NCBI GenBank assembly: GCA_041621755.1
Contig: JBFKAE010000002.1
Coordinates: 3,087-67,086 of the forward strand
Reading direction: 5' to 3'
DNA length: 64,000 nucleotides
Source: Sphingomonadaceae bacterium
GTDB taxonomy: Bacteria > Pseudomonadota > Alphaproteobacteria > Sphingomonadales > Sphingomonadaceae
Within the stretch, counting starts at the first letter, position 1. The number at the start of each line of letters is the position of its first letter. This document shows positions 37,805-52,976 of the stretch, piece by piece. Made by a program: the position numbers and the translations under genes. The notes below the pieces were generated by a model. That model ran no database searches. It saw only the letters and a list, made by a program, of their open reading frames with translations, and was not told where the DNA came from.

Positions 37805-40800
37805 TCACAGATCGAGCCCCAACGACTTTTCGGGAACGGGAAGCTGGCGCACTTGCGGTTCGGGCCGGGGACCGAGCACCGCATCGAGCTTGGCTTTGAG
37901 CTCCGGGCTCATCTTCAGGTCTGGCAGCTGCCGGGCATCGGTCGGGTTCACCTGCGACTTGTCCACCTCGATCCGTCCGGTCGCTTCGAGCGCCGAGGTC
38001 TTGTTACCCGGCGTGCGGTCGAGCTGAAATTTGAGCGCGGCAAGGTCGTTGGTGACAACATGCATGTCGTCGGTGGCACGCGTGTTGAGCACGTTCTGTG
38101 TGCGCTGGGTGGCAAGATTGCGCTGGCTTGAGGATATGACCTCGATCGCCCGCGCCATGGTCACGCCCTGCGCCATATGGGCATTGAGGGCATAGCCAAG
38201 ATCGAGGCGGCGCAGCATCGGATCGCCGGCGGGCAGGGTGACCTGCTGCCTGTCGCCAAGCTCCAGCGTGACCGCATCCTTCGTTGCTGCCAGCACCGTG
38301 GCATAAGTCGACTTGGCAATGTCACGGCTCGCATCCTTGTCGCGCCAGAACACGGTATCGCCGTCGTGCAGCCTCAGGTCTTTCTGCTCGTAGAGTCCGA
38401 GCCGGTCGAAGCGGTGCTGCGGATCGAGCCGATCGGGATCGATGAGCATTCTTGCGTTTCCGCGCTCGAGCAGGACCTTGCCGTCGCGGCGCACTTCGCG
38501 GACGGTGTATTCGCCTTTGCCCAGCCCGAGCTCGCGCACCCCCATGCGCGCTTCGAGCACCTGGCCCGCGCGGTAGGTTGAGGCAAAGCGCATTTCTTCG
38601 CGGGTAGTGTTGGCGCTTTGCAGCACCTTGAGCGCCACGCCTTCGCCTTTGAGCATACCATCACGCAGCAGGCCGGCCTGGACGAGCGCATTGATCTGCG
38701 CGCGATCATCGCGCCCAGCGGTAAAGATCGCGGTCTCAGCGCGCTGATCGGGCGGCAAGGAGAGCCAGAGATCGGCCGCCGCCGTGACATGGTCCTTGCC
38801 GGCTTCGGTGACCTTGCCATGCGATGCCAAGAGGTCGAGCGCGAGGCTGGCATGACCTTCGTTCGACAATCCCGCGACCGCAAGCAGCAGCGGCGAGTTC
38901 TTCTGGCGAATGTTCTCGTCCATGCGCACCGTCGCCTGGCCCGCGCTTTGCGAGACCGCGAACATCTTGCCCTGCTCGATCGCCGACAATTGCTGGCGAT
39001 CGCCCATGAACGGGGCCTTGGCGAGATCGAGCTGCTCGGCGATCGCGATCACCGAAAGCATATCGCGCGAGGAGACCATCGAGCTCTCGTCGGTGATGAC
39101 AACCGTGTCTTTCAGCTCAGCCTTCGCTGCCTCGAAACGCTCGCCTTCCCCGCGCGCGGCGGCCGAACCATAAGTGCTGACGAAACGCGCGATCGTATAG
39201 GCCTCGATGCCGGCCGCCTGCATCTCGTCGACCGACATGGCCTGCGAGCCACCCCCGCGCAGGTCGGCGACCATCTTGTTCTGGAAGGCCAGGCCGACAA
39301 GGCGCACCCCGTCTTCGGCCAGAACCTTCGCGACTGCACCAAGCAAGGTCGACTTGCCTGCGCCGGCCACACCCTGGATGTTGAGAAAGCGGTCGCTGCC
39401 CGACAGAACCGCGACACCCGCCGCCAACTGGCCAGAATTCAATTGCCAGTCCTCGGCACCGGCGCGTTCGCGTCCCAGTTTGCGCGCGGCCTGCTGTAAC
39501 CGCTCGACCGCCACGTCGGGCGCCATGAACGCGCAGCCCTTGCCCGCCCCGGCGTCGATGCGGTCCAATATCTGCTGCTCGCGCGCCAGCGCCTCGGGCG
39601 TCGTCACCAGGTCGAAATGCCCGTCGAGCCGGCCGGACTTGCCGGAAATGAGATGCCCACTATCGATCAGCTGCCCGATACGCTCGATCACTGCCTCGCC
39701 TTCAAGCCCCTTGATCTGGAAGCCCAGCGCTGCGGAGAGAATCGCATGCGGACTGAATGCCGCCTCGCGTTCGGAGAGGTGCCGGATCGCCGAGGCGGTC
39801 GCATGCTGGGCCTTGATCGTACCTGCCGAAAGGAACAGCGCGGCGGGGCCGGATACGGCGAGATCGCTCGGCGCTCGCAGCGCCGCATTGATACGGGTGG
39901 CGACTTCGGCAAAGGCAGCACTGGCGGTCTCGCGCATCGTGGGGCGAGCCAGCGCGGCAGCGCGTTCCTGCGCCTCGGCAACCAGCGGCTTGCCATCAAA
40001 CCCAAGTTCCGCCGCGCGCGCCTGCCAGCCCTCGACCAGAGCTTGCCGGTCGGCGACATCGAGCTTGGGATCGCGGGTGTAGAGCGTGATCTGCTTCTTG
40101 GTGGCCAGCCTCGTGGCACCGGTCTCCGCGATCTTTGCCTCGATCTCAGCGGTGCGGGTCGAGAAAGCCTTGATGACGGCAGCAGGCACGCCCTTGATCT
40201 CGAAGGCCCCATGCTTGGCTGTGCTCTCCGTCTCGTAACCGATCGCCTGCAGCCGGGCGCGAAAGGCGGCATGGTAGAACTGGCCGATGGTGGTGTTGTT
40301 CTTCCAGATCTCGCCGTTCCACAGCGCCTTCCAGTTGCCCTTGAGGTCGCGTGTCAGGTTGGCGACCACGGCATGGACATGGCCCTGTGGGTCGAGCGCG
40401 CGGCTCGTGTCGTGAGCGAACAAGGCATAGACGAGGTTGCCGGTCTTTTCCGGCTCACCATTGCGATTGCGCTCGTAATTGCGCGCTTCGGCAAGGCGCT
40501 TCTCGACAAGCTCGCTCATCGTCGATTTAACGGCTGAAAGATGTGCATCGAGGATACGCTTGTCGCCGGTTACGAGCGCCAGGATCGAGGCGGACTTGGG
40601 CATCGAGAAGGTGAGATCAAGTCCCAGCCTGCGCCCCTCGACCTGCCCCACCATTTGGCCGCTGGGCAGCCGGCCACCGAGGATTGCCTCGAACGCATCT
40701 CGCCCGACTTCGCCCACAAGCCCGAGCAGGCGCGCGCCTTCGCCGCCCCAGACCCCGCTTTCCGCGTTCTCTTCAGCCGTGTAGTAATTGTCGTTCGCGA

Positions 40801-40849
40801 AATAGTCGGCAGCGCCGCCCGCCGAGCGAACCGGTGCGATCGAATGCAT
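37805..40849 (-). CDS. traI: MOBF relaxase-helicase (TrwC/TraI family)
   Basis: 1014 aa. N-terminal relaxase with Tyr cluster (ADYFANDNYYTAEE) and HDTSRALDPQGHVHAV metal motif. Central AAA_30/RecD-like helicase with Walker A GVAGAGKST. Confidence 0.95.
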   Translation of the reverse strand: MHSIAPVRSAGGAADYFANDNYYTAEENAESGVWGGEGARLLGLVGEVGRDAFEAILGGRLPSGQMVGQVEGRRLGLDLTFSMPKSASILALVTGDKRILDAHLSAVKSTMSELVEKRLAEARNYERNRNGEPEKTGNLVYALFAHDTSRALDPQGHVHAVVANLTRDLKGNWKALWNGEIWKNNTTIGQFYHAAFRARLQAIGYETESTAKHGAFEIKGVPAAVIKAFSTRTAEIEAKIAETGATRLATKKQITLYTRDPKLDVADRQALVEGWQARAAELGFDGKPLVAEAQERAAALARPTMRETASAAFAEVATRINAALRAPSDLAVSGPAALFLSAGTIKAQHATASAIRHLSEREAAFSPHAILSAALGFQIKGLEGEAVIERIGQLIDSGHLISGKSGRLDGHFDLVTTPEALAREQQILDRIDAGAGKGCAFMAPDVAVERLQQAARKLGRERAGAEDWQLNSGQLAAGVAVLSGSDRFLNIQGVAGAGKSTLLGAVAKVLAEDGVRLVGLAFQNKMVADLRGGGSQAMSVDEMQAAGIEAYTIARFVSTYGSAAARGEGERFEAAKAELKDTVVITDESSMVSSRDMLSVIAIAEQLDLAKAPFMGDRQQLSAIEQGKMFAVSQSAGQATVRMDENIRQKNSPLLLAVAGLSNEGHASLALDLLASHGKVTEAGKDHVTAAADLWLSLPPDQRAETAIFTAGRDDRAQINALVQAGLLRDGMLKGEGVALKVLQSANTTREEMRFASTYRAGQVLEARMGVRELGLGKGEYTVREVRRDGKVLLERGNARMLIDPDRLDPQHRFDRLGLYEQKDLRLHDGDTVFWRDKDASRDIAKSTYATVLAATKDAVTLELGDRQQVTLPAGDPMLRRLDLGYALNAHMAQGVTMARAIEVISSSQRNLATQRTQNVLNTRATDDMHVVTNDLAALKFQLDRTPGNKTSALEATGRIEVDKSQVNPTDARQLPDLKMSPELKAKLDAVLGPRPEPQVRQLPVPEKSLGLDL

Positions 40850-40854
40850 GGCCC

Positions 40855-43125
40855 TTAGAACCCAAGGTCGTCAGCGGCGTCGAGGCCGGGCAATTGGGCT
40901 TCGCCCGGACCGCCTGCGGAACGTTCAACGCCGTGCTCGGGTTCGAGTGCCTCGGTGAGTTCGCGCGCAGTCTGCGAGACCTGCTTGGCGTTTCCGGCCA
41001 GCTTCACATTCGTGGACGAGCGGGGGGCGCCTTCAACGCCGCGCTGCGCTGCGGACATTTCGGTATCCGGCGCGCCCGGACGATAGCTCATCGCCCGCGA
41101 CAGGCTGCTGGCAACGGGAACATTTTCACCGATGTCCTGGCTCCCCAATTGGGCCGGTTCGTCCTCGTCCGCGAGGGCCTCAAGAGCAGACTCCCGGTCG
41201 TCGTCCCGCTCCATCTCCGGCTCGGGTTCGGGCGCATCGCGGGTCTCGCGCCCGCCCGCTTCCGGATCGCCCTGATCCTCTTCGTCGGTCTCTTCGGCAA
41301 ATTCGATCGGCTCGACATTTTCGCGCAGCACATAGCCTTCAGCGACCTTCGGATAGTCCTTCCAGGCAAGCCTGATCCGTGCCGCATCGAAGCCTTCGGG
41401 GAAGACCAGGAAACCGCGCAACGACGGCAGCTTCATGATGTCGTCGGGCAGCACCAGAGGCTGGACTTCGCTGCGCGGGGTGATCGTCGCGGCATCGCGA
41501 ATGTTCGAATATCCGTAGCTGTATGCTTCATCCATCATGCGCACTTCGCGGTGGCCGATGAAATCCGAACAATGCTCGGCTGTGTCGCGATCGGCGGCGG
41601 CAAGGATGAGCTTGGTGCGCGCGAGCGATGCAAGGTTCTGTGCGCCTTCCTTGCCATAGGTTTCGGCAAGCTTGGCGAAGCTGTGGATGCCAAGCACGAA
41701 GGCCCCGCCGAACCCGCGCGCTGTCTGCAGGCCGTCCTCGATCGCAGGCAGGCGGTGGAGCGCATGGACCTCGTCGAAGAAGAACCAGGTGCGCAAATCG
41801 CGCGTGCGCGGCAAGCGCATCAGCGTGTGCACGGCAAGGTTCATCCAGAGCGAGAGGAGCGCGCGATTGAGGACCAGTTCGTTGTGCGAGGAAGTGATGA
41901 ACAGGATCGATCCGGGCTGGTCGCAATCGCGGATCCAGTCGCAAATCGAGAAGGGTTCCTTGCCTTCAGGAAGGAACCGCAAAGCCTGCGCATTGGTGTT
42001 GAACACCGCGCGGATCGATTCCGCCATCTTCGCCGCTTCGGGCGCGGTCAGCGGATCGGCGACGGTATTCTCGAGCAGCTTGTGGACCGCCTTGAGGTCG
42101 GCCATCATCAGTCGGCTCGCGAGCGCCTGGTTGGTCGCCTTACCCAGCTTGATAAGGCGCATGCAGGTCTCGACGAAAAGCGTGCGCGCAGCCAGCATCC
42201 AGAAGGGTTCCGCTCCGCCGCCATCGGCGGGCAGAAGCGCGGCGGCAATGCCGGTAAAGTCGGCGTGGTTCTTCGCTTCGGCGAAGACCGACCAGGACGG
42301 GCAGCGCTCGTCCATGGGATTGAGGATCGTGTCGGTCTCGGGGTTGTAGAAGGCCTCGACATAGGCGCCGGTGAGATCGAAGACGACGGCCCGGTCGCGG
42401 CGCTTGCGCATCTGCGCGATCAGCGCGCGCATCTGCGTCGTCTTGCCGGTTCCGGTCGAGCCGATCATCATCGTGTGCGCCTGTTCGGTGCGCCAGGGGA
42501 AGGGCACGCCGGCGAGCGCATAGGCATGATGGATGCCCGCTGCCTTGCGCTCGACAAGCGGCATAGCAAGCACCTCGTCCATGGTCCTTCCCGGCAAGCG
42601 TTCGGCGACTTCCTGGGCAAGCGCGGCGCGGTTGTGATCGTTGATGACGGATGCAAGATCGGTCGCATCGACGAGCATCGCGCCGCGCTGATGGCGCTCC
42701 TCGAGGATCGACTTTCCGCGCCGCCGGGAGAAGTCGACGAACCACACCGCAATCGGCACGGCGACGAAAAGCGAGATAAACAGCGAGCCCCATATCGCGC
42801 GCATCATCCTCTCCCAGGCGACGACGACATCGGGGTGCGAGGCGACCATGCCGATGGGTGCGGGAATGACCTCTCCCGAGGGCAGGGTGAGGTTGATCAC
42901 CTTGGCATTGGAGAACTCCATGAACTGCCATCCGGCAGCATAGATCCGCATGCCAATCATCTGAATTTCGTGTTCGTGAAGCCGCAGCGCCAGGACCACC
43001 GAAAGCACTGCGAGGAAGGTGAAGAACCAGACGAGAAACGGCAGCCGCGCGGAGGCGAACCACATCAGGAATTCGTGGGTGATGAGCTGCGATCCGCGCG
43101 TGAAATCACCGGCATTGCGCGGCAT
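40855..43125 (-). CDS. traD: type IV coupling protein (TraD/TrwB family)
   Basis: ATG at 43125 (MPRNAGDFTRGSQLITHEFLMWF, like the F TraD N-terminus). Two TM segments, Walker A GSTGTGKT, and an acidic C-terminal tail. Confidence 0.9.
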   Translation of the reverse strand: MPRNAGDFTRGSQLITHEFLMWFASARLPFLVWFFTFLAVLSVVLALRLHEHEIQMIGMRIYAAGWQFMEFSNAKVINLTLPSGEVIPAPIGMVASHPDVVVAWERMMRAIWGSLFISLFVAVPIAVWFVDFSRRRGKSILEERHQRGAMLVDATDLASVINDHNRAALAQEVAERLPGRTMDEVLAMPLVERKAAGIHHAYALAGVPFPWRTEQAHTMMIGSTGTGKTTQMRALIAQMRKRRDRAVVFDLTGAYVEAFYNPETDTILNPMDERCPSWSVFAEAKNHADFTGIAAALLPADGGGAEPFWMLAARTLFVETCMRLIKLGKATNQALASRLMMADLKAVHKLLENTVADPLTAPEAAKMAESIRAVFNTNAQALRFLPEGKEPFSICDWIRDCDQPGSILFITSSHNELVLNRALLSLWMNLAVHTLMRLPRTRDLRTWFFFDEVHALHRLPAIEDGLQTARGFGGAFVLGIHSFAKLAETYGKEGAQNLASLARTKLILAAADRDTAEHCSDFIGHREVRMMDEAYSYGYSNIRDAATITPRSEVQPLVLPDDIMKLPSLRGFLVFPEGFDAARIRLAWKDYPKVAEGYVLRENVEPIEFAEETDEEDQGDPEAGGRETRDAPEPEPEMERDDDRESALEALADEDEPAQLGSQDIGENVPVASSLSRAMSYRPGAPDTEMSAAQRGVEGAPRSSTNVKLAGNAKQVSQTARELTEALEPEHGVERSAGGPGEAQLPGLDAADDLGF

Positions 43126-43183
43126 GTTGCCGCGCGCCGAATGGTGCTGAAGCTTGCCCGGGCGGCGGCGGTCGGACCAGGTG

Positions 43184-43480
43184 TCAGGCCGCGCCACAAA
43201 GCGCCTCCATCCGGGCCTCGGCTTCGGCGAGTAGTTCGCCATGTACATCGGCGTATTGGCGCTGGATGATGAGGTCGAGCGCGAGGAAGAGATACTCGAG
43301 CGAGAACTGCCGCCGCCGGTCGAGTTCGGAAGCTCCCGCGACGCCTTCGAGAAAATGCTCAAGAGCGATTCGCACGAGATTGGATCGGGAAGTCTTTTGC
43401 GCTTCGGCAGCGGCCTTTGCTGCCTCGGCAATCGGCTGCGGCAGCCGCACCGAAATTAATACCGTATCTGTCATCGCCAA
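43184..43480 (-). CDS. ribbon-helix-helix (CopG/TraY-like) relaxosome accessory protein
   Basis: VLISVRLPQPIAEAAKAAAEAQKTSRSNLVRIALEHFL is an RHH motif. First gene of the RHH-traD-traI module next to an AT-rich region. Confidence 0.7.
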   Translation of the reverse strand: MAMTDTVLISVRLPQPIAEAAKAAAEAQKTSRSNLVRIALEHFLEGVAGASELDRRRQFSLEYLFLALDLIIQRQYADVHGELLAEAEARMEALCGAA

Positions 43481-43690: not shown

Positions 43691-43945
43691 CTTCGAACTG
43701 CACCGCAGTGTACGGTCTGCAAAATATCCAATCAATCCCACCCATGCCGTCGCTCGCGGGGTTGTCAGCACTTAAGAGGATATGGGGAAGGGCCTTCATG
43801 GCATGTTACGGCGCTGACCCCGATGCATTTTACTTTGCCAATTGGTCATGAATTTGCGCCTGGCGATGCGCGAAGGCTTGCCAAGAGCGCATGTCCGGGC
43901 AAGGCTTGTGGCCGGGAGGTTTCAGCACCACCCAGGAGTATGATC

Positions 43946-44300: not shown

Positions 44301-44612
44301 TCAGAACGGGCAGTCATCGTCCCAGTCGGCGTCCATCAGCACGCTCATGAAGCTGGCGGCGCGAGCGATGTTCTCCTCGTCGAAGTCGTCGGCCATCTGG
44401 CCCTGGACCGTATGGACGATGCGGTCGATGAGGTGTATCGGCAGCGCGTTGTAGTCGCCTTCCTCTATGACGCGGAACGAGCCGTCTTCGTCCTCGATCA
44501 CGTGGCAGTCGAAGAAGCTGTGCGCGGCGCGCATGGTTGCTGTGCGAATGGCGGCGTCGTAGCTGACAGTGTCAAACTCGGGAATGTCGAAACGGGAAAC
44601 GAGAGCGTTCAT
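44301..44612 (-). CDS. small strongly acidic hypothetical protein
   Basis: 103 aa. RBS AGGAGG upstream. Many D/E residues (IEDEDGSFRVIEEGDY, ADDFDEEN, DADWDDD). First minus-strand gene after the oriT candidate. Confidence 0.55.
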   Translation of the reverse strand: MNALVSRFDIPEFDTVSYDAAIRTATMRAAHSFFDCHVIEDEDGSFRVIEEGDYNALPIHLIDRIVHTVQGQMADDFDEENIARAASFMSVLMDADWDDDCPF

Positions 44613-44676
44613 GAAAACCTCCTATTGAGAGCACTTGAAAAGAGGTCTCGAGGCAGGATGATCGCGCTTGGCGCGG

Positions 44677-44820
44677 GTCACAGAACGGGCCGCAGGACCG
44701 CCGCGTCAGCGGGGGTGGGGGAGCCGATTTTTTCGCGAGCCAAGGCGCAGCCGCAGGACGCGCAAAAATTGGGGGAACCGCCCTTCTTGACGCAGGCCAA
44801 TGGCGGTCATCACGCTTGGA
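44677..44820. repeat. structured leader/promoter element, copy A
   Basis: Aligns by eye with 46142-46297. Shared blocks: GTCACAG-ACGG, GCCGCAGG, GGGGGAGCCG-TTTT, CAAGGCGCA-CCGCAGG, CGCAAAA-T-GGGGG-ACC, CTTGACG, GTCAT-C-TTGG. Contains hairpin CGATTTTTTCGCG / CGCGCAAAAATTG. Confidence 0.6.
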
Positions 44821-45023
44821 AGTCTGCGAGAAGGAATACCCCCTATCCATCCAGCCCGGCCGATGCGAGCCATGCCGTCCCGCCAGCAGGCCATGGGCCG
44901 TCACTGGCGGGGCCAGCATGCGAGCGAGCCGGGCAGGGGAGTACGCAATCGACAGCAAAAAGGGCATCCGGCGGTGAAACCGGACACCCCTTTGCGAGAA
45001 CCGCTGGTGCAATTCCGTGCCGC

Positions 45024-46067
45024 TCAGAACGGCGGCAGATCGTCTCCATTGGCGACGCGCTTTGCGGCTTGCTGGCCGGCTTGGTCCGCGGCCTTTGCCT
45101 GACGCTGCACGGGTTCATTGTCGGCACCCGCTTCGCGCACGATGTGCATGGGAATGCGTGCCTCGCGCAGCCGGTCGGCAAGGTTCGCCTGAATGCCGCC
45201 GCCGCTGCAGACAATCGCCTCGACCGGCTTGAACGCGAGCATGCGGGCGTTGCGCTGGTAGGGCGCGGAAGCGCCGCGCGATGCATCGGGCTTGCACAGG
45301 ATCACCGGCACGCCCTGGCGCGATGCCCATGAGGCCGCGATGACATCGGCGCCCTTGTTCTGCGCGGTGGTTGCGAGCACCATCGAGGGAATGCGTTCGC
45401 GCACCGCATCGAGGTAGTCGTGCACCAGGCCGATATCGGTAAATTGCTGTCCGCCCGAGAACACCACGACCGGTCCCGAAGGCGCAAACTGCTCGCGCCG
45501 CTGCGCGCGCTGCGATGCGAGGTAATCACGCGCTTCGATCATCGACGCGTTCGACTTCATCGAGACCCGCGAACCACGCACCGGCGAGAAGGGACGGCCG
45601 GTTTCGACAAGATAGATCGAGGCGGCATGATCGCGCATGCACTCCATCGCGTCGCGGCACTCGGCCAGGCTCCTGGCCTGCATGGTGAGGTCCTCGACGT
45701 CGGTGGCGTAGACTTCGCTCGGATCGTATTCGCGCAGCTTCTCCTGGAGTTTTCTGGCCATGGCATCCTCGCGGTCATCGAGGCGCTTTGCCACCACGTG
45801 GAAGCTGTTGGCCACGCCCCATGCGACTTCGCTTGCGAAGTCTTCCATGCGGGTGTCGCGAAACAAATCGAAGACCGTTGCCAGCATCATCTCGATCGCG
45901 GCCTGCGCAATGTCGGGATCGGGCATTTCGGCAGAGCTGGGTTCGTCGGCGACCGAGAGCCGGGAAAGTTCGGTCTGCTCCATGAAGGCCCGGGCATAGT
46001 CGGGCGTCTGGACCTCACGCGCATAGTGCTCGGCAAGGTCGGAAAAGTTCGAGAAACGAGTTGTCAT
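45024..46067 (-). CDS. DUF2493 (SLOG-like) domain protein
   Basis: ATG at 46067 after GGAGGA. The C-terminal PVVVFSGGQQFTDIGLVHDYLDAVRERIPSMVLATTAQNKGADVIAASWA matches the DUF2493 pattern common on conjugative elements. Confidence 0.8.
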   Translation of the reverse strand: MTTRFSNFSDLAEHYAREVQTPDYARAFMEQTELSRLSVADEPSSAEMPDPDIAQAAIEMMLATVFDLFRDTRMEDFASEVAWGVANSFHVVAKRLDDREDAMARKLQEKLREYDPSEVYATDVEDLTMQARSLAECRDAMECMRDHAASIYLVETGRPFSPVRGSRVSMKSNASMIEARDYLASQRAQRREQFAPSGPVVVFSGGQQFTDIGLVHDYLDAVRERIPSMVLATTAQNKGADVIAASWASRQGVPVILCKPDASRGASAPYQRNARMLAFKPVEAIVCSGGGIQANLADRLREARIPMHIVREAGADNEPVQRQAKAADQAGQQAAKRVANGDDLPPF

Positions 46068-46141
46068 GATATCCTCCGAAGGATCTGTCTCTCTCATCAC
46101 CGCGATGAAAGATGAGCCTTGAAGGACGCCGGAGTCAGGCA

Positions 46142-46297
46142 GTCACAGGACGGCGGGGCCGCAGGCCACGCCGCCGCGCCAAGCGGGCGTGGGGGGAGCC
46201 GGTTTTGCGGGGCACAAGGCGCACGCCGCAGGGCCCGCAAAATCGGGGGGCACCCGCGATCCTTGACGGCCGCCAGCTCGCAGGCGTCATGCTTTGG
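46142..46297. repeat. structured leader/promoter element, copy B
   Basis: Homologous to 44677-44820. Hairpin GGTTTTGCGGGG / GGCCCGCAAAATCG flanked by G-runs. Plus-strand TTGACG at 46263-46268. Confidence 0.6.
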
Positions 46298-46794
46298 CGA
46301 TGCCGATTTCACTCGGCTACCGAGATGAGAGAGTTGAAAAGGTTTTGCCCCCGAACCGCGCACGCGGTCGGGGTGAACAGCAAAACACCGCATCGACTGC
46401 GACCCGCCCTTGAGAGCTCCCGCAGGGCACCTTTGTGCCCGCCCCACGGGAGGCAGGCGGGGTCGCCCTGGTGAGCGCCGACGACGGCGCGGCCAGCAAC
46501 CAGAAACGGACCCCTTGCCGGAGCAAGTCCGTCGTCGCGCGGGTCCCGTGCTTGTCACGGGTGCGGGACGGCGACGGAGCCGGAGGCAAGAGTGCCGGCG
46601 GCCCAATGCAGGAAGCACCGCACCCGCAGGAGCGCGGCTGCAAGGCGCGCGGGACCGAGTGCGGCAATCTTGACAGGGCCGCTCCTTCTGAGATCGATCG
46701 CGAACGCGTGGGGGGACCTTGTCGTGATCCATTTGCAGGCGCGTGACGCATTGCAGGCTCGCCAAACCCTGGGGTCGCGCGCTAGATTGCCGGA

Positions 46795-47034
46795 ATGGTG
46801 ACGATGACGATCTGCGTACCGCCGGAATTGATGGCGTTTGTTCAGGGCGAGGTCTCTGCGCGTGGCATGGGCACGATCAGCAACTATGTGTGCGAACTGA
46901 TCCGCAAAGATCGGGACAGCGTGAATCTGCGCGATTTGCTGATGGAGGGAGCCGCCTCAGCGACTGGCAAGCCCGCTGACGCGAACTATTTTGACGGTCT
47001 TCGTTCTCGCGTCACGGGCAGCGCAGCTTCTTGA
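46795..47034 (+). CDS. parD: ParD-family antitoxin (no cognate ParE adjacent)
   Basis: MTICVPPELMAFVQGEVSARGMGTISNYVCELIRKDRD matches the ParD/CopG-type antitoxin N-terminus. Confidence 0.7.
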   Translation: MVTMTICVPPELMAFVQGEVSARGMGTISNYVCELIRKDRDSVNLRDLLMEGAASATGKPADANYFDGLRSRVTGSAAS

Positions 47035-47087
47035 GAACAAGCCAGGGCGAGAACGCCATTTTGAATTGATCGATCGGGAATTGGGTC

Positions 47088-47357
47088 ATGGAATTTGACG
47101 ATCAGATGCGGCGGTTCTTCGGGACAGACGACCTTGCGAGCGTTTCCCCCGAGGCGATGGCGAGCGGCATCGAGCGCATGCAGGTCGAGTTCGGGTTGGA
47201 GACCGACAAGGGCCGCAGGTTCGCGATGTGGTCGCTGCTCTACATGCTGGGTTCCGCGCCTGACCTCGATGTCGCGTTCGAGGACCCGCAGGACCGCGAT
47301 GCGGCGCGAACTTTCATGGACCTTCTGGACCAAGCCAACAGCGCTGCGGACAGCTAG
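47088..47357 (+). CDS. hypothetical acidic protein
   Basis: 89-aa ORF, protein-like (RFAMWSLLYMLGSAPDLDVAFEDPQDRDAARTFMDLL). Not ParE-like. Confidence 0.45.
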   Translation: MEFDDQMRRFFGTDDLASVSPEAMASGIERMQVEFGLETDKGRRFAMWSLLYMLGSAPDLDVAFEDPQDRDAARTFMDLLDQANSAADS

Positions 47358-47523
47358 GCAGCCCCTAAGAAAAGGCGATCCAGGCGATTTACCCTGCAAT
47401 CGGGCGTGTTCGCGATTTGCGGGGTAAACGGCAGAATTCCGAGTAATCTTCAGACCAAACCCGGACCATCTGGTGATACCCAATCGGAATACGTCCGAAA
47501 TCCCTTTGAGACCCGCTGGTATG

Positions 47524-47581
47524 TGTCCATATTTGGACAATGATCGCGGATTTGCAAACTCAATTGTCCACGCTTGGACAA
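47524..47581. promoter_or_regulatory. pair of operator-like dyads TGTCCA-N4-TGGACA
   Basis: TGTCCATATTTGGACA at 47524-47539 abuts the ATG at 47540. TTGTCCACGCTTGGACAA lies at 47564-47581, inside the first codons of the XRE gene. Confidence 0.45.
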
Positions 47582-47851
47582 CAGATCAGGCAGAGGCGTC
47601 TTGGCCTCAACCTCACGCAGCAGGCGGCAGCGGCCAGGTCTGGCGTAGCCTATCGAACCTGGCGGCGGATGGAAGGAGAGGGCAAGGCTTCGATCGAGGA
47701 CCTGGTGCGCGCGGCGATTGCGCTGCGTTGCGATGAAAATCTCGCTATGCTGTTCCCCGAACCTGTCGCCAGAAACATGGATGAATTGCTCGCGCGTCAG
47801 CGCATGGCTGCTGGCGGGGGACGGCAGCGCGCCGGAAAGGCAAGGTCGTAA
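47540..47851 (+). CDS. XRE-family HTH transcriptional regulator
   Basis: LGQQIRQRRLGLNLTQQAAAARSGVAYRTWRRMEGEG is a Cro/C1-type HTH. Confidence 0.7.
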   Translation: MIADLQTQLSTLGQQIRQRRLGLNLTQQAAAARSGVAYRTWRRMEGEGKASIEDLVRAAIALRCDENLAMLFPEPVARNMDELLARQRMAAGGGRQRAGKARS

Positions 47852-47930
47852 AGTTTTCGCCGAGCTTTAGCTTGCAGGCACCGACTCACAGGTGCCTGAA
47901 CAGAATTGCATCATATACAAGGCGTATTTG

Positions 47931-47959
47931 TTGATTTGTTCATTATTGCCTAGTATATT
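47931..47959 (+). promoter_or_regulatory. sigma70-like promoter candidate for hipBA
   Basis: TTGATT (47931-47936), 17-nt spacer, TATATT (47954-47959) in an AT-rich gap. The -10 ends 6 nt before the ATG at 47966, so the mRNA is possibly leaderless. Confidence 0.4.
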
Positions 47960-47965
47960 GTGCAA

Positions 47966-48241
47966 ATGCTGGATCTGGCAACGCTCGGAGAAACGATCGC
48001 GCAGCACCGCAGCGCGCAGCGGCTGACACAGGCCGAACTGGCCCGGCGCGCGCGCATCGGGCGATCGACACTCGATGCGCTGGAAAATGGCCGCCTGGCG
48101 GAGCTGGGATTCGGCAAGATCGCACGAATCCTGTCTGCACTGGGCCTCACCCTGAAGCTTGGCGAGGCCAATCGGGGGCGGCCGACACTGGAGGACCTTC
48201 TCGCCGAAACCGATGAGACGCCGTTGAAGGATCGGGCATGA
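47966..48241 (+). CDS. hipB: HipB-like XRE antitoxin
   Basis: HTH LGETIAQHRSAQRLTQAELARRARIGRSTLDALENG. 4-nt overlap with hipA. Confidence 0.7.
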   Translation: MLDLATLGETIAQHRSAQRLTQAELARRARIGRSTLDALENGRLAELGFGKIARILSALGLTLKLGEANRGRPTLEDLLAETDETPLKDRA

Positions 48242-49461
48242 CCATCAAGGTCTGGACCGATGGGCGAGCGGCAGGCCTGCTTGGGGCGAAGGGGGCAAGG
48301 GGAACGGCGTTCGCATATGCCTCCGGCACAGGGCCGGCGGACGCTGTGTCCGTCACCATGCCGGTGCGCCTGGCCTCGTGGGACAGCGACTACGGTCTTG
48401 CCCCGATATTCGAGATGAACCTGCCCGAAGGCGCGCTGCGCGAGCGGCTGCGGATGGCTTTTGCAAAAGCCACCGGGGCATTCGACGACCTCGACCTGCT
48501 TGCAATCGTGGGGCGCTCGCAGGTGGGGCGGCTGCGCTACACCGACGAGCATGCCGAGCTGGACCAAGCTGTCCCGTTCCAGTCGGTCGACGAGCTTCTG
48601 GCCAGTCGCCGGGACGGCAATCTGTTCCAGTATCTGCTTGAGCGGTTTGCCGCCTATTCGGGCGTGAGCGGAGTTCAGCCCAAGTTGCTCATCCGCGACG
48701 ACATTGCCTGGGGGGCAGGGCCCGAGGCAGGGACGCGGACAAGCATCCAGGGCGCAACACACATCGTCAAATTCTGGGAAGATCAGTATCCGCAGCTTGC
48801 TGCAAACGAGTTCTTCTGTCTCAAGGCGGCAGAACGTGCCGGTCTTCCGGTCCCGCGTTTCCAGCTTTCCGAGGACGGCCGCGCGCTCGTGATCGACCGG
48901 TTCGATCTGCGCAGCGACGGTCGATATCGCGGCTTCGAGGATTTCTGCGTCCTCAACGCACGGGCGACGGCCGAGAAATACCGCGGATCATACGAGACTG
49001 CCGTCCTCAAGCGGTTCCGCGAATTTGCCTCGCCCGAGCAGATTGCGGCAGGGTCAGAGACGATCTTCCGGATGATCGCACTCAACGCTGCGCTTCGTAA
49101 TGGCGACGCGCACCTGAAAAACTTCGGGATCGTCTACGACGACATCGAAGGAGAGGTCGCGCTGGCGCCGGTCTACGACCTGGTCACGACCACTGCATAT
49201 ATTCAGGCCGATCAGATGGCGCTGACGCTCGATGGTTCGACCCGGTGGCCGACGGCGAAGCAATTGTTGGCATTCGGCACGAACCGGCAGATCGGATCGC
49301 CCGCAGCGATCAAGGCCATGCTCGGCGCGATTGCCGAGGCGGTGTTCGAGACAATGGGGGACCTTAAGCGTCACATGCAGGTGGAACCGGAGTTCGAGGA
49401 AATTGGCACCCGGATGCTGGCGCAATGGGAAGAAGGAATCCGCACCAGTCTCATCGTCTAG
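48238..49461 (+). CDS. hipA: HipA-family serine/threonine kinase toxin
   Basis: 407 aa. N-terminal coupling domain (FEMNLPEG), GVSGVQPKLL, and catalytic region LRNGDAHLKNFGIVY...APVYDLVTT. Confidence 0.9.
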   Translation: MTIKVWTDGRAAGLLGAKGARGTAFAYASGTGPADAVSVTMPVRLASWDSDYGLAPIFEMNLPEGALRERLRMAFAKATGAFDDLDLLAIVGRSQVGRLRYTDEHAELDQAVPFQSVDELLASRRDGNLFQYLLERFAAYSGVSGVQPKLLIRDDIAWGAGPEAGTRTSIQGATHIVKFWEDQYPQLAANEFFCLKAAERAGLPVPRFQLSEDGRALVIDRFDLRSDGRYRGFEDFCVLNARATAEKYRGSYETAVLKRFREFASPEQIAAGSETIFRMIALNAALRNGDAHLKNFGIVYDDIEGEVALAPVYDLVTTTAYIQADQMALTLDGSTRWPTAKQLLAFGTNRQIGSPAAIKAMLGAIAEAVFETMGDLKRHMQVEPEFEEIGTRMLAQWEEGIRTSLIV

Positions 49462-49498
49462 TGCGAAAGACCGCGAAAGTCGAAAAGGACCCCAAGAT

Positions 49499-49675
49499 AT
49501 GACAAACGAGGTTGCCATCGAAGTGGACAGCAATGGCGAATTTCAACTGCCGCAAGCGATCATGGCCCGCCATGGCTGGGCGCCTGGATCGCGACTGGTC
49601 GTTGAGCTGATGCCTGATGGATTGCTGCTGAAGGACGCGCCGCACGAGGACGTTTCGATGGAGCGTCAGGCTTGA
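49499..49675 (+). CDS. AbrB/MazE/SpoVT-family antitoxin-like DNA-binding protein
   Basis: 58 aa. VDSNGEFQLPQAIMARHGWAPGSRLVVELMPDGLLL is a swapped-hairpin AbrB-type motif. Confidence 0.6.
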   Translation: MTNEVAIEVDSNGEFQLPQAIMARHGWAPGSRLVVELMPDGLLLKDAPHEDVSMERQA

Positions 49676-49738
49676 GCAGATTGCCTTTTCGCCAGATCGG
49701 TGTATATGTGTACAAACACACAAGTGCCGGAGTTCGCC

Positions 49739-49978
49739 ATGTCTTCCACTCGCTGGAATATCGCTGTGTCGCAGGACACGGATCGGTCCGTGCGGATGTT
49801 CCTCGCCGCCCGTGGGGGAGGTCGTAAGGGCGACCTGTCGCGCTTCATCGAGCAGGCTGTTCGCTCCTACCTGTTCGAGCAGACTGTCGCAGAGGCGAAA
49901 GAGGCAACTGCCGATCTGAGCGAGGCGGAGCTCACCGAGCTGATCGACGAAGCTGTCGAGTGGGCGCGCCATAACTGA
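49739..49978 (+). CDS. ribbon-helix-helix antitoxin partner of the PIN toxin
   Basis: ATG at 49739. WNIAVSQDTDRSVRMFLAARGGGRKGDLSRFIEQAVRSYLF. ATGA-type overlap with the PIN gene. Confidence 0.6.
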   Translation: MSSTRWNIAVSQDTDRSVRMFLAARGGGRKGDLSRFIEQAVRSYLFEQTVAEAKEATADLSEAELTELIDEAVEWARHN

Positions 49979-50403
49979 TGCGTGTCATACTGGACACGAA
50001 CGTCCTGATTGCCGCACTGATTTCGCGATTGAGCCCGCCCGACGCGATCTACCGCGCCTGGCGAGAGGGCCGTTTCGAATTGGTGACATCTCGTTTGCAG
50101 CTGGACGAGCTGAGACGGATAAGCCGCTATCCCAAGCTCAAGCCAATTCTGCCGAACCATCGGATCGGCACCATGGTAAACCATCTCAATCGCGCCATCG
50201 TGCTCGATAAGGTTCCGGCGTTACCGGACGGTGTGGAAACACAAGACCCGGACGACGATTTCCTCTTGGGCATGATCCTGGGCAGCGATGCGGATTTCCT
50301 TGTGACAGGAGACAGGCGTGCCGGCCTCCTGCAGCACGGGAGTTTCCAGCGGGCGCGGATCATGACCCCGACGGCATTCTGCGCCGAACTGTCCCTTAGC
50401 TGA
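49978..50403 (+). CDS. PIN-domain toxin (TIGR00305-like)
   Basis: MRVILDTNVLIAALIS..., later acidic residues in DDDFLLGMILGSDADFLVTGD, typical of the PIN ribonuclease fold. Confidence 0.8.
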   Translation: MRVILDTNVLIAALISRLSPPDAIYRAWREGRFELVTSRLQLDELRRISRYPKLKPILPNHRIGTMVNHLNRAIVLDKVPALPDGVETQDPDDDFLLGMILGSDADFLVTGDRRAGLLQHGSFQRARIMTPTAFCAELSLS

Positions 50404-50423
50404 CAGGGACCCATTCTATCATT

Positions 50424-50452
50424 GGAGCAATCGTGAGTTGCTTCTTTGCTCC
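50424..50452. terminator. hairpin between convergent PIN and ParE/RelE genes (possible bidirectional terminator)
   Basis: GGAGCAA (50424-50430) / TTGCTCC (50446-50452) in an AT-rich gap. No strong U-tract. Confidence 0.35.
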
Positions 50453-50488
50453 GAATTGATAATACATCTTATGTTAAATATCAATGGG

Positions 50489-50842
50489 TTAGGCCCGCGA
50501 GCCGTGCTGGAGAAGCCGGCGTTCCAGCAAACTGGCGAAGTCGCGGCGGCTGTCGGCGACAACCGCGATCGTAACCAGATCACCTTGGGCCGTATAGATG
50601 ATGCGATATGGCCAGACCGAGAGCTGCCGCCAGTCAGTCATCCCCAACGCGTCCAGCTCCGGTGGGACTGGCCCGCGCAAGGGATACTCGATCAGGCTCT
50701 CGATGGCATCGTAGAGCGTGTCGAGAAGCGCATCGGCTCCGTCCGGACCGTCCGCGCCGCGCTGTTTCAGACGATGATTGTAGATCGCCTGCAGGTCGCC
50801 TTCGGCTTCTGCGGCAAACTGAATGCGGGTTGGCTTCGCCAT
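50489..50842 (-). CDS. RelE/ParE-family toxin
   Basis: ATG at 50842. ...LIEYPLRGPVPPELDALGMTDWRQLSVWPYRIIYTAQGDLVTIAVVADSRRD is ParE/RelE-like. Overlaps the stop of the upstream antitoxin. Confidence 0.8.
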   Translation of the reverse strand: MAKPTRIQFAAEAEGDLQAIYNHRLKQRGADGPDGADALLDTLYDAIESLIEYPLRGPVPPELDALGMTDWRQLSVWPYRIIYTAQGDLVTIAVVADSRRDFASLLERRLLQHGSRA

Positions 50843-51114
50843 CAGCGCGCCGCGCGAGCGCGTATCCGATCCTTGAGACCTTCGAGCGGCTGAACCCGGC
50901 CTTGCGCCATATCGTCGCGCGCCATCGCGAGAAGCTTGAGGAGCGCCAGCAGTTCCTGGGTCTCCGCATAGCTCGCAACGTCCTGCAGAACCGCCTTTGC
51001 CTCGCCGTTTTGCGTAATCACCAGCGGCGGCGCGCCATCGGCCAAGTCGCGGATGACTTCGGCGCTGTGGGCTTTCAGATAGCTGATCGGCTTGACGCGG
51101 GTTTCGAGGCCCAT
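50842..51114 (-). CDS. Phd/YefM-family antitoxin
   Basis: VKPISYLKAHSAEVIRDLADGAPPLVITQNGEAKAVLQDVASY is the Phd/YefM N-terminal fold. Confidence 0.8.
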   Translation of the reverse strand: MGLETRVKPISYLKAHSAEVIRDLADGAPPLVITQNGEAKAVLQDVASYAETQELLALLKLLAMARDDMAQGRVQPLEGLKDRIRARAAR

Positions 51115-51202
51115 AGCTCACTCCATACCATATTCGGTCTGAATATAGTCTAATGGGGACAAGAAGGCAAATCGTTCCGAGGCCATGTGACGCTCCGCAA
51201 AT

Positions 51203-52755: not shown

Positions 52756-52976
52756 GAATGACAGCGCCGGTCTCGCAAGGCCGGTCGGCCAAGAAAAAGG
52801 GGGCCAGCTTGCGCCGACCCCCGTGGAAAGTTTGGGAGAGGATGCCTGAAAGGCAGCGCCAATATAGGCCGCACCCTGCAATGCTGCAAGTGCGAAAAGA
52901 TCGCACGGGGTTGAATAATGCGCACACGGGGAGAAGCGGCGCTGCCCGATGGACAGCGCCGCCTCCTGGCCTGGCG

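Follow-up and report, generated by a model that had tools for sequence, protein, structure and literature searches.

A two-copy element beside oriT

The window, by which we mean the whole stretch of DNA that was analyzed (64 kb), contains an oriT and, to the right of it, two minus-strand genes that each have a copy of the same element upstream. The gene beside copy A encodes an acidic protein of 103 amino acids that ends in DWDDDCPF and for which we found no Pfam match. The gene beside copy B encodes a DUF2493/YAcAr protein of the SLOG family (Pfam PF10686, E = 6.5e-23) that ends in NGDDLPPF. (We picked the start codon of this gene to agree with annotated homologues.) The features of the locus are:

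43698..43708, + strand: oriT core, an IR2-like hairpin (CTGCACCGCAG; from an oriT alignment of eight plasmids)
43709..43720, + strand: conserved single-stranded tail 3' of the oriT hairpin (TGTACGGTCTGC)
44301..44645, - strand: predicted copy A transcript (RBS GGAGG at 44618-44622, ATG at 44612)
44657..44816, + strand: copy A of the element
44955..45000, - strand: terminator of the DUF2493 transcript, a hairpin and T-run (GGGGTGTCCGG..CCGGATGCCC, then TTTTTG; read from the sequence)
45024..46113, - strand: predicted copy B transcript (RBS GGAGG at 46073-46077, ATG at 46067)
46126..46293, + strand: copy B of the element

The two copies are each other's sole significant match in the window. With copy A as the query, nhmmer found copy B as the only non-self match (E = 1e-5), and the reverse search, with copy B as the query, gave E = 4.6e-9. 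Pairwise blastn aligned the copies at 78% identity across 115 nt. With a covariance model (R1) and filters off, we found exactly two copies (64.5 bits for A and 54.1 bits for B) and no third copy, for instance by other minus-strand genes; the best remaining match had 13.7 bits (E = 0.8). Both copies are kept at the same two positions, upstream of the acidic open reading frame and of the DUF2493/YAcAr gene, in all eight of the related sphingomonad plasmids that we fetched. An initial annotation had already proposed a two-copy element, which these searches and the related plasmids bear out, and the common sequence blocks that it named are present in both copies. The boundaries it gave were too short, however: the element extends about 20 nt farther 5' in each copy (to 44657 and 46126).

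Judging from the R388-like anatomy of oriT, the + strand is the transferred strand (T strand) and the leading region lies to the right. Across the eight plasmids, the arms of the oriT hairpin covary (CTGC/GCAG, CGGC/GCCG, ACGG/CCGT, and GCACC/GGTGC), and conservation is limited to the + strand tail that follows the hairpin on its 3' side. The oriT hairpin at locus L009 (GCACCGAGGTGCGT) is a near-match to IR2 of R388, and the T-strand oligonucleotide and gene geometry of R388 match the oriT region of this plasmid. The polarity is the same in a second backbone that has mobC and a relaxase. (Relaxase genes enter the recipient last, as is established for R388 and F.) Copies A and B are about 0.9-1 kb and 2.4-2.5 kb 3' of the oriT hairpin and nick region.

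A structure that is conserved on one strand

Using blastn and covariance models, we found members of the same family in plasmids and ICEs of Alphaproteobacteria. All of the blastn matches in a plasmid collection were to alphaproteobacterial replicons, and covariance model searches gave 122 matches in one case and 40 in another. The instances were ascertained via the conserved P3 core, with a search pattern that excluded both promoter boxes and the arms. Because many of them are related, the counts overstate the number of independent events. None of the curated Rfam models matched the element at the gathering score, either in the window or at 16 loci; the only Rfam matches, to mmgR and ar15, were elsewhere.

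Comparative analysis gave one conserved architecture, which is limited to the + strand: a four-way junction cap formed by P1, P2a, P2b, and P3, whose flanks pair as an outer stem (P0). When 58 diverse copies were aligned with MAFFT, blind to structure, 90.4% of the cells in the cap paired, compared to 79% in column shuffles and 33-53% in slid registers. Double changes occur in 21 of 35 pairs, and there are 186 compensatory cells versus 59.5 expected (a number reached by 0 of 500 shuffles). Across the family, C-GNA-G triloops outnumber GNRA tetraloops by 54 to 3. GCGNAGC and CCGAAGG are extraordinarily stable DNA mini-hairpins that occur at ssDNA priming and transcription origins, and a fragment of such a mini-hairpin was reported to bind SSB poorly (PMC13037366). 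Where a source has at least two copies, all of them are on the same strand (38 of 38 sources), and loci L009 and L010 have a single copy per transcription unit. The parts of the two copies in the window, all on the + strand, are:

44657..44676: copy A P0, 5' (template) arm (GATGATCG at 44657-44664, internal loop CGC, TTGGCGCGG at 44668-44676)
44677..44791: copy A junction cap (full-length R1 match, 64.5 bits, E = 1.8e-11; family covariation)
44677-44685 with 44784-44791: copy A P1 (GTCACAGAA with TTCTTGAC)
44686-44711: copy A P2 region, degenerate in this copy
44712-44784: copy A P3 (P3a is GGGGGTG/CCGCCC)
44719-44723 / 44773-44777: copy A P3 internal loop (GGGAG / GGGAA)
44724-44733 / 44764-44772: copy A P3b (CCGATTTTTT / AAAAATTGG), apex at 44734-44763
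44787..44792: copy A -35 box, TTGACG, within the 3' strand of P1 (read from the sequence)
44793..44811: copy A spacer, which is the P0 3' arm; 18 nt between boxes (from the MFE and the family pairing profile)
44811..44816: copy A -10 box, CACGCT; base 1 paired, remaining five unpaired
46126..46141: copy B P0, 5' (template) arm (GACGCC at 46126-46131 pairs with GGCGTC at 46283-46288)
46142..46267: copy B junction cap (R1 match, 54.1 bits, E = 2.7e-9; MFE)
46142-46150 with 46260-46267: copy B P1 (GTCACAGGA with TCCTTGAC)
46151-46173: copy B P2a hairpin
46174-46186: copy B P2b hairpin (CCGCGCCAAGCGG)
46187-46258: copy B P3 (P3b is CCGGTTTT/AAAATCGG)
46263..46268: copy B -35 box, TTGACG
46288..46293: copy B -10 box, CATGCT, 19 nt past the -35; the stem ends at C46288

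In the full-length + strand MFE of copy A, the 5' arm pairs with 44793-44811, and C44811 is both the last paired base and the first base of the -10 box. Compared to the other A copies, P0 has a compensatory change here, from GATGGCCG/CGGCCATC to GATGATCG/CGGTCATC. The central hairpin that the initial annotation had described is real in both copies (CCGATTTTTTCGCG/CGCGCAAAAATTGG in A and CCGGTTTTGCGGGG/CCCGCAAAATCGG in B), and the changes between A and B are compensatory. The outer pairings that it had drawn for copy A, GACCGCC/GGCGGTC and GCGTCA/TGACGC, are an MFE alternative and are not the ones that relatives conserve, which are GTCACAGAA/TTCTTGAC (P1), TTGG../..CCAA, and GATGATCG/CGGTCATC (P0). 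They appear in the MFE of the truncated sequence, they break or shift register in other A copies, and they give way to P1 and P0 if the 5' arm is included.

With the 5' arm included, the + strand of both copies folds significantly better than shuffled sequences do (z = -2.3 for A and -3.0 for B, where 1 of 300 shuffles was equally low), and the minus strand folds no better than shuffles (z = -0.3 for A and -1.5 for B). In the family, the + strand was the more stable one in 98 of 98 instances, by a mean of 10.7 kcal/mol (DNA parameters). The + strand has 373 internal G.T pairs versus 4 A.C mismatches, and three of the G.T wobbles are conserved. In homologues, both the cap and the outer arm pairing covary. 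A caveat is that G.T pairs are only weakly stabilizing in DNA.

Promoter boxes at the foot of the outer stem

The 3' strand of P1 carries a -35 box with the family consensus TCC-TTGA(C/G)G; the base counts (n = 63) are T63, T59, G63, A59, (C/G), and G52. TTGACG had been pointed out on the + strand before and is confirmed at 44787-44792 (A) and 46263-46268 (B), and the -10 boxes had been overlooked (CACGCT at 44811-44816 and CATGCT at 46288-46293). The consensus of the -10 is YAYRMT, followed by nGG, and A2 and T6 are both present in 92% of copies, versus 26% in shuffles. A caveat is that the -10 was located by a scoring rule that favors A2 and T6, with shuffles as the only control. Along the strand, the spacing between the boxes is 15-20 nt. 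This is an unusual spacing for a promoter, and bulges in the stem have to absorb the variation. (Measured against the E. coli consensus, the -10 of the sphingomonads, CAYGCT, is weak.)

The spacer is paired to the 5' arm, with covariation between the two. The predicted energy of a spacer with its own 5' arm is -16.1 kcal/mol, versus -10.5 with foreign arms, and the own arm was the single best among 59 partners in 25 cases. In different copies, uninterrupted arm helices of 16-25 bp are unrelated in sequence. Across 63 non-redundant copies, the positions of the 3' arm up to the first -10 base are paired with the 5' arm in 59-75% of copies, and from the second -10 base onward, pairing falls to 24-33%. 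A sizeable minority of copies have no arm pairing in their MFE folds. If the -10 was instead anchored on the end of the RNAduplex helix, the long-arm duplex often overran the -10 via an internal loop. Farther downstream, there is a weak excess of pairing at +6 to +12 (0.31 versus 0.17). Pairing beyond +13 equals the foreign-arm control, so a downstream duplex, in which the conserved purine box 3' of the -10 (GAGAGAGA, TGAGCAGA) would pair with the complement of the RBS in the 5' arm, is unsupported.

The genes next to the element

The gene to the left of each copy has the + strand as its template. In the family, 95 of 116 copies are followed by a minus-strand open reading frame with an RBS, and the distance from the end of the stem to the ATG is mostly 35-58 nt, with a median of 40 nt. 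Copy A, at 45 nt, is within this main range, and copy B, at 59 nt, is at its upper edge. We infer, without having measured it, that the copy A transcript starts at about 44645, which is 13 nt past the end of the stem on the template arm; the corresponding inferred start for copy B is at about 46113. A Pfam search of ten downstream proteins gave nothing besides DUF2493/YAcAr. The plasmid ssb genes of related replicons lack the element, so it is not a general early promoter of the region.

Because the DUF2493 transcript ends at the terminator at 44955..45000, the acidic gene needs its own promoter. Copy A sits in the gap between that terminator and the acidic gene. (A consensus scan did not list this hairpin and T-run.) We rejected a duplex promoter for both genes, as the consensus scan found no minus-strand sigma-70-like site upstream of either one, with alphaproteobacterial promoter types outside its scope, and there was no -10 at the mirror position on the gene-sense strand (the score of 5.5 is at the level of shuffles, and A2 and T6 are both present in 8 of 52).

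Proposed function and alternatives

The repeat, its strand-specific covarying structure, the boxes and their placement, the assignment of the T strand, and the distance to the genes were all observed here. We think it likely, by computation only and with no experiment, that both copies are single-stranded-DNA promoters, analogous in function to Frpo. This was also the reading that the initial annotation favored, with the transferred strand folded and its 3' arm as the non-template strand, and every computational test that we ran supports it.

During conjugation, the + strand would enter the recipient 5' to 3', with the nick near 43710-43720 first, and each copy would fold on itself before the complementary strand is synthesized. 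The very stable four-way junction cap (P1, the mini-hairpins P2a and P2b, and the long P3) would nucleate folding, and both flanks would then zip into the outer stem. The 3' arm would be one continuous strand, from P3 through TCC-TTGACG (the -35) into the 15-20 nt spacer, and would take the role of the non-template strand. Because pairing would end at the first base of the -10 (YAYRMT, then nGG), the -10 would be presented already single-stranded, as in a fork-junction or pre-melted promoter. The 5' arm would run on into the left gene, with its RBS and start codon, as a free template. A host RNA polymerase of the sigma-70 type would bind and start about 13 nt past the end of the stem, and the predicted leader is short (roughly 23-46 nt). 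Once the complement is synthesized, the hairpin would be absorbed into duplex, with the -35 and -10 facing away from the gene. Since the boxes would then be misdirected and the gene-sense strand has no -10, we would expect a transient burst of early leading-region proteins. The binding of RNA polymerase, transcription from ssDNA, the start site, the on/off behavior, and the purpose of the cap are inferred. The A-tract duplex of P3b is at about -58 to -53, where the distal subsite of an UP element would be, and the mini-hairpins may resist SSB.

We lean, with some hesitation, towards a broader proposal as well: an undescribed and structurally distinct class of ssDNA promoter that is widespread among alphaproteobacterial conjugative plasmids and ICEs, in which a conserved junction cap would nucleate a hairpin with a duplex -35 and a melted -10 and so lead to a burst of early proteins. 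The cap, in this proposal, combines DNA mini-hairpins, a G-rich internal loop, and the A-tract duplex at the place of an UP element, and many of the early proteins would end in a D/E-x-P-P-F tip like that of the SSB tail. The cap itself may be a recognition site for the alpha subunits of the polymerase, for SSB exclusion, or for primase, and it may couple transcription and priming.

A folded T strand might instead be an ssi signal, which would recruit primase, PriA, or a primer-making RNA polymerase to start the complementary strand and would have no role in gene expression. This fits the strand-specific folding of the T strand, the presence here of mini-hairpins of the GCGNAGC/CCGAAGG type that occur at G4-type origins and at ssiA of RSF1010 (PMC13037366), and the description of Frpo as promoter and primer source alike (PMC12672017). 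We consider it unlikely, since it leaves unexplained the conserved -35 and -10 in promoter register, the end of the stem at the -10, the fixed short distance to the RBS and ATG, and the single copy per transcription unit (at L009 and L010); also, a primer from the element would copy merely 1-2.5 kb back to the nick. Priming and promoter functions are not mutually exclusive. The + strand could also be expressed as an RNA, either an sRNA or a cis-antisense RNA directed at the 5' end of the left gene. The asymmetry of G.T (that is, G.U) pairs and the covariation would fit an RNA equally well, and there is a sigma-70-like site just upstream of copy A (TTGAAA-16-GATGAT, 44635-44662, + strand), but it is not kept in the other A copies, and copy B lacks such a site. 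The sole conserved boxes lie within the 3' portion of the structure, so transcripts that start from them would leave the structure out. Along with the lack of a terminator after the element, the loops (DNA-type GNA triloops, not GNRA tetraloops), and the absence of an Rfam match, this makes a + sense RNA quite unlikely.

The strand asymmetry bears on two more explanations, which include the alternatives that the initial annotation had left standing, a shared operator and a structured leader RNA. One is that the element acts as duplex DNA, with an ordinary rightward promoter and an inverted-repeat operator at which a plasmid repressor co-regulates both genes. In R388 and similar plasmids, global repressors control the leading region, the -35 and -10 boxes here are on the + strand, and at some loci (L011, and copy B in the window), there is a + strand gene 200-500 nt to the right. 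But at L010, L135, and copy A in the window, the element faces nothing but the 3' end of the minus-strand gene that comes next, and the constant partner is the left gene. The duplex explanation, which we view as very unlikely, leaves the asymmetry (373 G.T versus 4 A.C) without a reason. Nor does it suit the arms, whose sequences covary across a distance of 80-140 nt instead of keeping a binding motif, or the 15-20 nt spacing, which is poor for a duplex promoter. The other explanation is that the element gives the minus-sense mRNAs a structured 5' leader, such as a riboswitch-like element or a translational operator. The element does lie upstream of the start codons and downstream of what could be a promoter region, and it is common to unrelated genes. 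Here the asymmetry is a contradiction, as it is the mRNA-sense strand that folds less well in 98 of 98 instances, A.C mismatches would replace the G.T pairs of the + strand (including the three conserved wobbles), and the minus strands of the window copies are not better than shuffles (z = -0.3 and -1.5). No upstream minus-strand promoter was found by the consensus scan, either, and a leader RNA seems to us extremely unlikely.

Comparison to known ssDNA promoters

Promoters in ssDNA are known experimentally only from enterobacterial IncF and IncI plasmids (PMC9849209, PMC11541004, PMC12672017). We found no literature on them in Alphaproteobacteria, with a query that was too broad to prove their absence. 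Frpo1 and Frpo2 of F and ssi2 and ssi3 of ColIb-P9 (class 1) are in the leading region beside oriT, as the element is, and silencing once the DNA is duplex would be expected here as it is for them (PMC9849209, PMC11541004, PMC12672017). In both cases, folding is limited to the transferred strand, both boxes are on one arm, and the T strand is the template of the oriT-facing genes. F has two copies of Frpo, which are 92% identical, upstream of different leading operons (PMC9849209), and the two copies here are 78% identical. The element meets the criteria of the ssDNA-promoter class for location (in the leading region, on the transferred strand), for a strand-specific stable stem-loop in the T strand, and, in sequence and placement only, for a -35 and -10 on the non-template arm. 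It does not meet the criterion of the Frpo/ssi family that both boxes be in duplex, as the -35 is duplex and the -10 is unpaired.

As far as sequence comparison can tell, the element is not a homologue of Frpo. With filters off, the best R1 match in 15.5 kb of the leading region of F had 12.8 bits (E = 0.3), and there was no match in the 7-kb oriT region of R388 that we fetched. The element is about 160 nt long, versus roughly 300 nt for the hairpin upstream of ssb in F (from our own fold of that region). Its apex is a conserved four-way junction, whereas that of Frpo is a simple loop, and its -10 is unpaired from the second base at the foot of the stem, whereas the -10 of Frpo is "reconstituted" within the stem. 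The hosts also differ (Alphaproteobacteria versus enterobacteria). Because we could not confidently place the Frpo2 boxes on our own fold, the box-by-box comparison rests on published descriptions. Going by these comparisons, the copies probably belong to a new and structurally distinct family of Frpo-like ssDNA promoters.

The class 2 and class 3 ssDNA promoters of pESBL and F, which hairpin mining brought to light, are large hairpins of the T strand that precede leading operons; they are unrelated in sequence to Frpo and have predicted starts that were matched by 5' RACE (PMC12672017). So, several unrelated families of ssDNA promoters exist. Classes 2 and 3 are enterobacterial and, unlike for our element, no conserved multi-helix cap has been described for them. 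The leading genes of pESBL are poorly induced in Sinorhizobium meliloti (PMC12672017), which would mean that plasmids of Alphaproteobacteria need their own promoters. This family possibly accounts for the failure of enterobacterial ssDNA promoters in Sinorhizobium.

Promoters in ssDNA explain how anti-defence and establishment genes can be expressed before the incoming strand is copied, and homology searches from the few known ones cannot reach other phyla. R1 would mark the genes that are expressed early from rhizobial, agrobacterial, acetobacterial, and sphingomonad plasmids and ICEs, and the plasmids and ICEs within its reach carry symbiosis, virulence, and catabolic traits. The ORFan "first proteins" (the DUF2493/SLOG protein and the small proteins with SSB-tip-like ends) are candidates for anti-defence or ssDNA handling.

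Region 2 of sigma-70 reads -11A and -7T on single-stranded non-template DNA, and Guo and Gralla reportedly described fork-junction or pre-melted promoter templates in vitro in 1998. Like the element, these templates are duplex from -35 to -12 and have a single-stranded non-template -10 with invariant A2 and T6 and then a G-rich discriminator. The templates are artificial, whereas the geometry of the element comes from the folding of one natural strand. If so, the element is a natural fork-junction design, and it is directly testable. As in our element, C-GNA-G mini-hairpins are part of a functional ssDNA element at the G4 origin, in ssiA of RSF1010, and in the early promoters of phage N4, and those signals are read by primases or by the N4 virion RNA polymerase and have no sigma-70 boxes (PMC13037366). 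The mini-hairpins of the element, unlike those, sit in a cap upstream of a -35.

The element and its family

The window comes from a sphingomonad conjugative megaplasmid. Croceicoccus naphthovorans p2 is the plasmid closest to it, with pNL1, pCAR3, and pLA1 as further relatives. The features we refer to are:

37805-40849, minus strand: TrwC-type relaxase
40855-43431, minus strand: TrwB-type coupling protein
43184-43480, minus strand: ribbon-helix-helix protein
Between the ribbon-helix-helix and acidic-protein genes: intergenic oriT region, then a small + strand ORF
44301-44612, minus strand: 103-aa acidic protein (no match in Pfam)
44657-44816, + strand: element, copy A
~44955-45000: hairpin and T-run, read from the sequence, at the end of the DUF2493 transcript
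45024-46067, minus strand: DUF2493/YAcAr SLOG-family protein
46126-46293, + strand: element, copy B
46795-47034: ParD-like ORF (homologue in the related locus L001 annotated as ParD antitoxin)
48238-49461: candidate HipA-like ORF
49978-50403: candidate PIN/VapC-like ORF

The initial annotation had described an element repeated upstream of the acidic-protein and DUF2493 genes, and the repeat was confirmed. Apart from self-matches, copies A and B match significantly only each other within the 64 kb (nhmmer E = 1e-5 and 4.6e-9; 78% identity over 115 nt by blastn). Eight related plasmids have both copies in the corresponding places, and the two are the window's sole matches to the family covariance model (R1) with filters off. 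The proposed 5' end was too short: the element extends about 20 nt further 5'.

More sensitive blastn searches found weaker copies on sphingomonad plasmids with other backbones and on plasmids of Rhizobium, Agrobacterium, Neorhizobium, and Bosea. A search with the central hairpin core alone (GGAGCCGATTT N5-35 AAATYGGGG) found at least 120 genome loci. Among the matches listed, these are overwhelmingly from Alphaproteobacteria (Rhizobiales, Sphingomonadales, Acetobacteraceae, Paracoccus, Ferrovibrio, and Phenylobacterium); the few listed from other phyla are chance matches. Two scans of the fetched loci with R1 gave 122 and 40 matches, and no Rfam family matches the element. Because many family members are kin, counts of instances are not counts of independent events.

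IS110-family transposase genes adjoin the element in two fetched loci (L011, 3753-4820; L004, 7328-8359), and in L011 the transposase gene stands where the downstream gene would otherwise be. The element's hairpins may be targets for the insertion sequence; alternatively, the insertion sequence may have captured the promoter.

Past copy B, the leading region (46795-51200) contains ORFs that resemble toxin-antitoxin genes. (The basis for these calls is the ORF list, together with toxin-antitoxin genes annotated at the equivalent place in related plasmids; no domain search underlies them.) The plasmid also has a match to Rfam RF00519 (suhB/mmgR sRNA) at 52784-52861 on the minus strand (45.6 bits).

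A conserved cap and a forked outer stem

We aligned 58 diverse copies with MAFFT, using no structural information. The alignment supports a predicted four-way junction:

P1: GGTCAGGGA pairs with TCCTTGAC
P2a and P2b: two short hairpins
P3: long hairpin, variable at its tip, that contains an A-tract stem (CCGATTTT / AAAATTGG) and a near-invariant internal loop (GGGAG / GGGAA)

Given this structure, 90.4% of cells pair, as compared to 79% in column shuffles and 33-53% in slid registers. Both sides change in 21 of 35 pairs, and there are 186 compensatory cells where 59.5 are expected, a number that none of 500 shuffles reached. Most of the hairpin loops are C-GNA-G triloops (54, versus 3 GNRA tetraloops). 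Hairpins of the GCGNAGC/CCGAAGG type are extraordinarily stable in DNA and have been reported from ssDNA origins of replication and transcription; SSB reportedly binds poorly to a fragment with one of them (PMC13037366). Such loops speak for DNA rather than RNA as the molecule that folds, without proving it. In a sphingomonad subfamily (L039, L047, L051, L072, and L087), P2 has an insertion of 40-60 nt, which folds into its own long hairpin (GTTAACCGGGAAGCCGG...CCGGTTAAC).

The -35-like TTGAC that had been read on the + strand does belong to a family-wide box, TCC-TTGA(C/G)G. The same TTGAC forms the 3' strand of P1, and some copies show covariation between it and its P1 partner (as in GTCAATGA/TCATTGAC). 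A -10-like hexamer follows on the + strand, 15-20 nt rightward of P1. Across 63 non-redundant copies its consensus is Y-A(60/63)-Y-R-M-T(61/63), then nGG, and A2 and T6 occur jointly in 92% of copies versus 26% of shuffles. The spacer between the boxes, which varies in length, is complementary to the sequence immediately 5' of P1. The sequences of these two arms vary among copies while their complementarity is retained, and several copies have uninterrupted arm helices of 16-25 bp. Arms pair better with their own partner (-16.1 kcal/mol) than with foreign ones (-10.5 kcal/mol), and in 25 cases the own arm ranked first among 59 partners. (For a minority of copies, pairing of the arms was absent from the minimum free energy fold.) In constrained folds, 3'-arm positions are paired with the 5' arm in 59-75% through the first base of the -10 and in 24-33% from the second base on, so in the folded strand the -35 and spacer are duplex and the -10 is unpaired. 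The modelled fold thus has the geometry of a fork-junction promoter. The search pattern included neither the arms nor the -35 or -10, so the conservation of all three counts as independent evidence. What the cap does is purely an inference: the strand of the 3' arm runs unbroken from P3 into P1, which would permit coaxial stacking and put the A-tract between roughly -58 and -53, the place of a UP-element distal subsite.

A conserved purine-rich box (GTCAGAGAGAGA, CTGAGCAGA, TGAGGGAA, or ATGAGAGAG) lies on the + strand in the right flanks of most copies, mostly ~8-40 nt 3' of the -10 (44823-44834 and 46325-46333 in the window). Many Rhizobiales copies have CTCTCCGTATGGCACC after it. Folds did not support its pairing with the complement of the RBS.

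The + strand is transferred

An oriT block at 43698-43720 is kept in 8 of 8 plasmids: a covarying hairpin, then GTGTACGGTCTGC on its 3' side, on the + strand only. In a more distant plasmid (L009), the hairpin is GCACCGAGGTGCGT, almost identical to IR2 of R388. The R388 T-strand oligonucleotide matches IncW plasmids at 100%. In R388, the relaxase, coupling protein, and TrwA genes occupy the opposite strand on its left and the leading region lies on its right; the window's oriT shares this geometry. The conserved block and the R388 geometry bear out the initial annotation's choice of the + strand as the transferred strand, and everything to the right of ~43720 would enter first. The polarity is the same in L135, a locus with a second type of backbone that carries mobC and a relaxase: its two copies of the element are on the would-be transferred strand, and the oriT-facing genes arrayed around them include ssb and an ArdC-like gene. 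(This presupposes that oriT is upstream of mobC.)

Links to the downstream genes

On the 5' side of 95 of 116 copies is a minus-strand ORF with an RBS. The distance from the end of the stem to the ATG is mostly 35-58 nt (median 40), and it is 45 nt for copy A and 59 nt for copy B. By extrapolation, we infer that transcription starts near 44645 and 46113, respectively. All 38 sources with at least two copies have them on a single strand, and in L009 and another fetched locus, L010, one copy precedes each consecutive minus-strand unit. The acidic-protein gene requires its own promoter because the hairpin and T-run at ~44955-45000 end the DUF2493 transcript. We found no minus-strand sigma-70-like site upstream of the acidic-protein or DUF2493 genes, and no -10 at the mirror position on the gene-sense strand.

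Proteins directly downstream of the element often end like the C-terminal tip of SSB (44301-44612 and 45024-46067 on the window's minus strand; also in L011-L133). The acidic protein ends with DWDDDCPF, the DUF2493 protein with NGDDLPPF, and small helical proteins of 54-56 aa with AEPPF, EPPH, or EPPY. Among non-redundant downstream ORFs, 22 of 88 end with PF, as compared to 4 among 755 background frames taken from the window. The plasmid SSB in L001 ends with EEVLFL and lacks the acidic tip. These early proteins may mimic the SSB tail.

In the 5' flanks of L104, L025, L011, and other Rhizobiales copies, the RBS complement lies within a local inverted repeat (CTCCTTTCG..CGAAAGGAG), and the inferred start of transcription is between its halves. 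We speculate that read-through mRNAs would bear an anti-RBS that is absent from promoter-derived mRNAs.

A probable ssDNA promoter

Taken together, these features are most simply explained if the element is a ssDNA promoter, a reading that we consider probable on computational evidence alone. Such a promoter would work only for as long as the leading region remains single-stranded in the recipient; synthesis of the complement would silence it and turn it to the wrong direction.

Folding with DNA parameters favours the + strand over its complement in 98 of 98 instances (by a mean of 10.7 kcal/mol), and these instances have 373 internal G.T pairs versus 4 single A.C mismatches. Three wobble pairs are conserved in the family. 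With the 5' arm included, the z-scores of copies A and B are -2.3 and -3.0 for the + strand and -0.3 and -1.5 for the minus strand. This strand asymmetry contradicts both a leader RNA in the minus sense and a purely duplex function, such as an operator or a divergent promoter. An RNA in the + sense would be expected to have the same asymmetry, but such an RNA has neither a conserved promoter nor a conserved terminator. A priming signal (ssi) is compatible with a promoter and may coexist with it, but priming leaves both the boxes and the spacing to the genes unexplained.

The published ssDNA promoters (Frpo1/2, the ColIb-P9 ssi elements, and pESBL/F classes 2 and 3) are all enterobacterial (PMC9849209, PMC11541004, PMC12672017). 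As a proposed ssDNA promoter, the element would work like Frpo of plasmid F. However, it is half the length of the folded F hairpin, has a conserved multi-helix cap, and leaves its -10 unpaired. R1 found nothing in the leading region of F, and, as judged by sequence, the element is outside the Frpo family. The 5' arm of F Frpo2 (L136, T strand upstream of ssb, fold positions 66-100) does contain GGGAGCCGCGGTTTTGACGTTTTGCGGGG, which resembles the core GGGAGCCGGTTTTGCGGGG of copy B; this could be due to chance, distant relatedness, or convergence.
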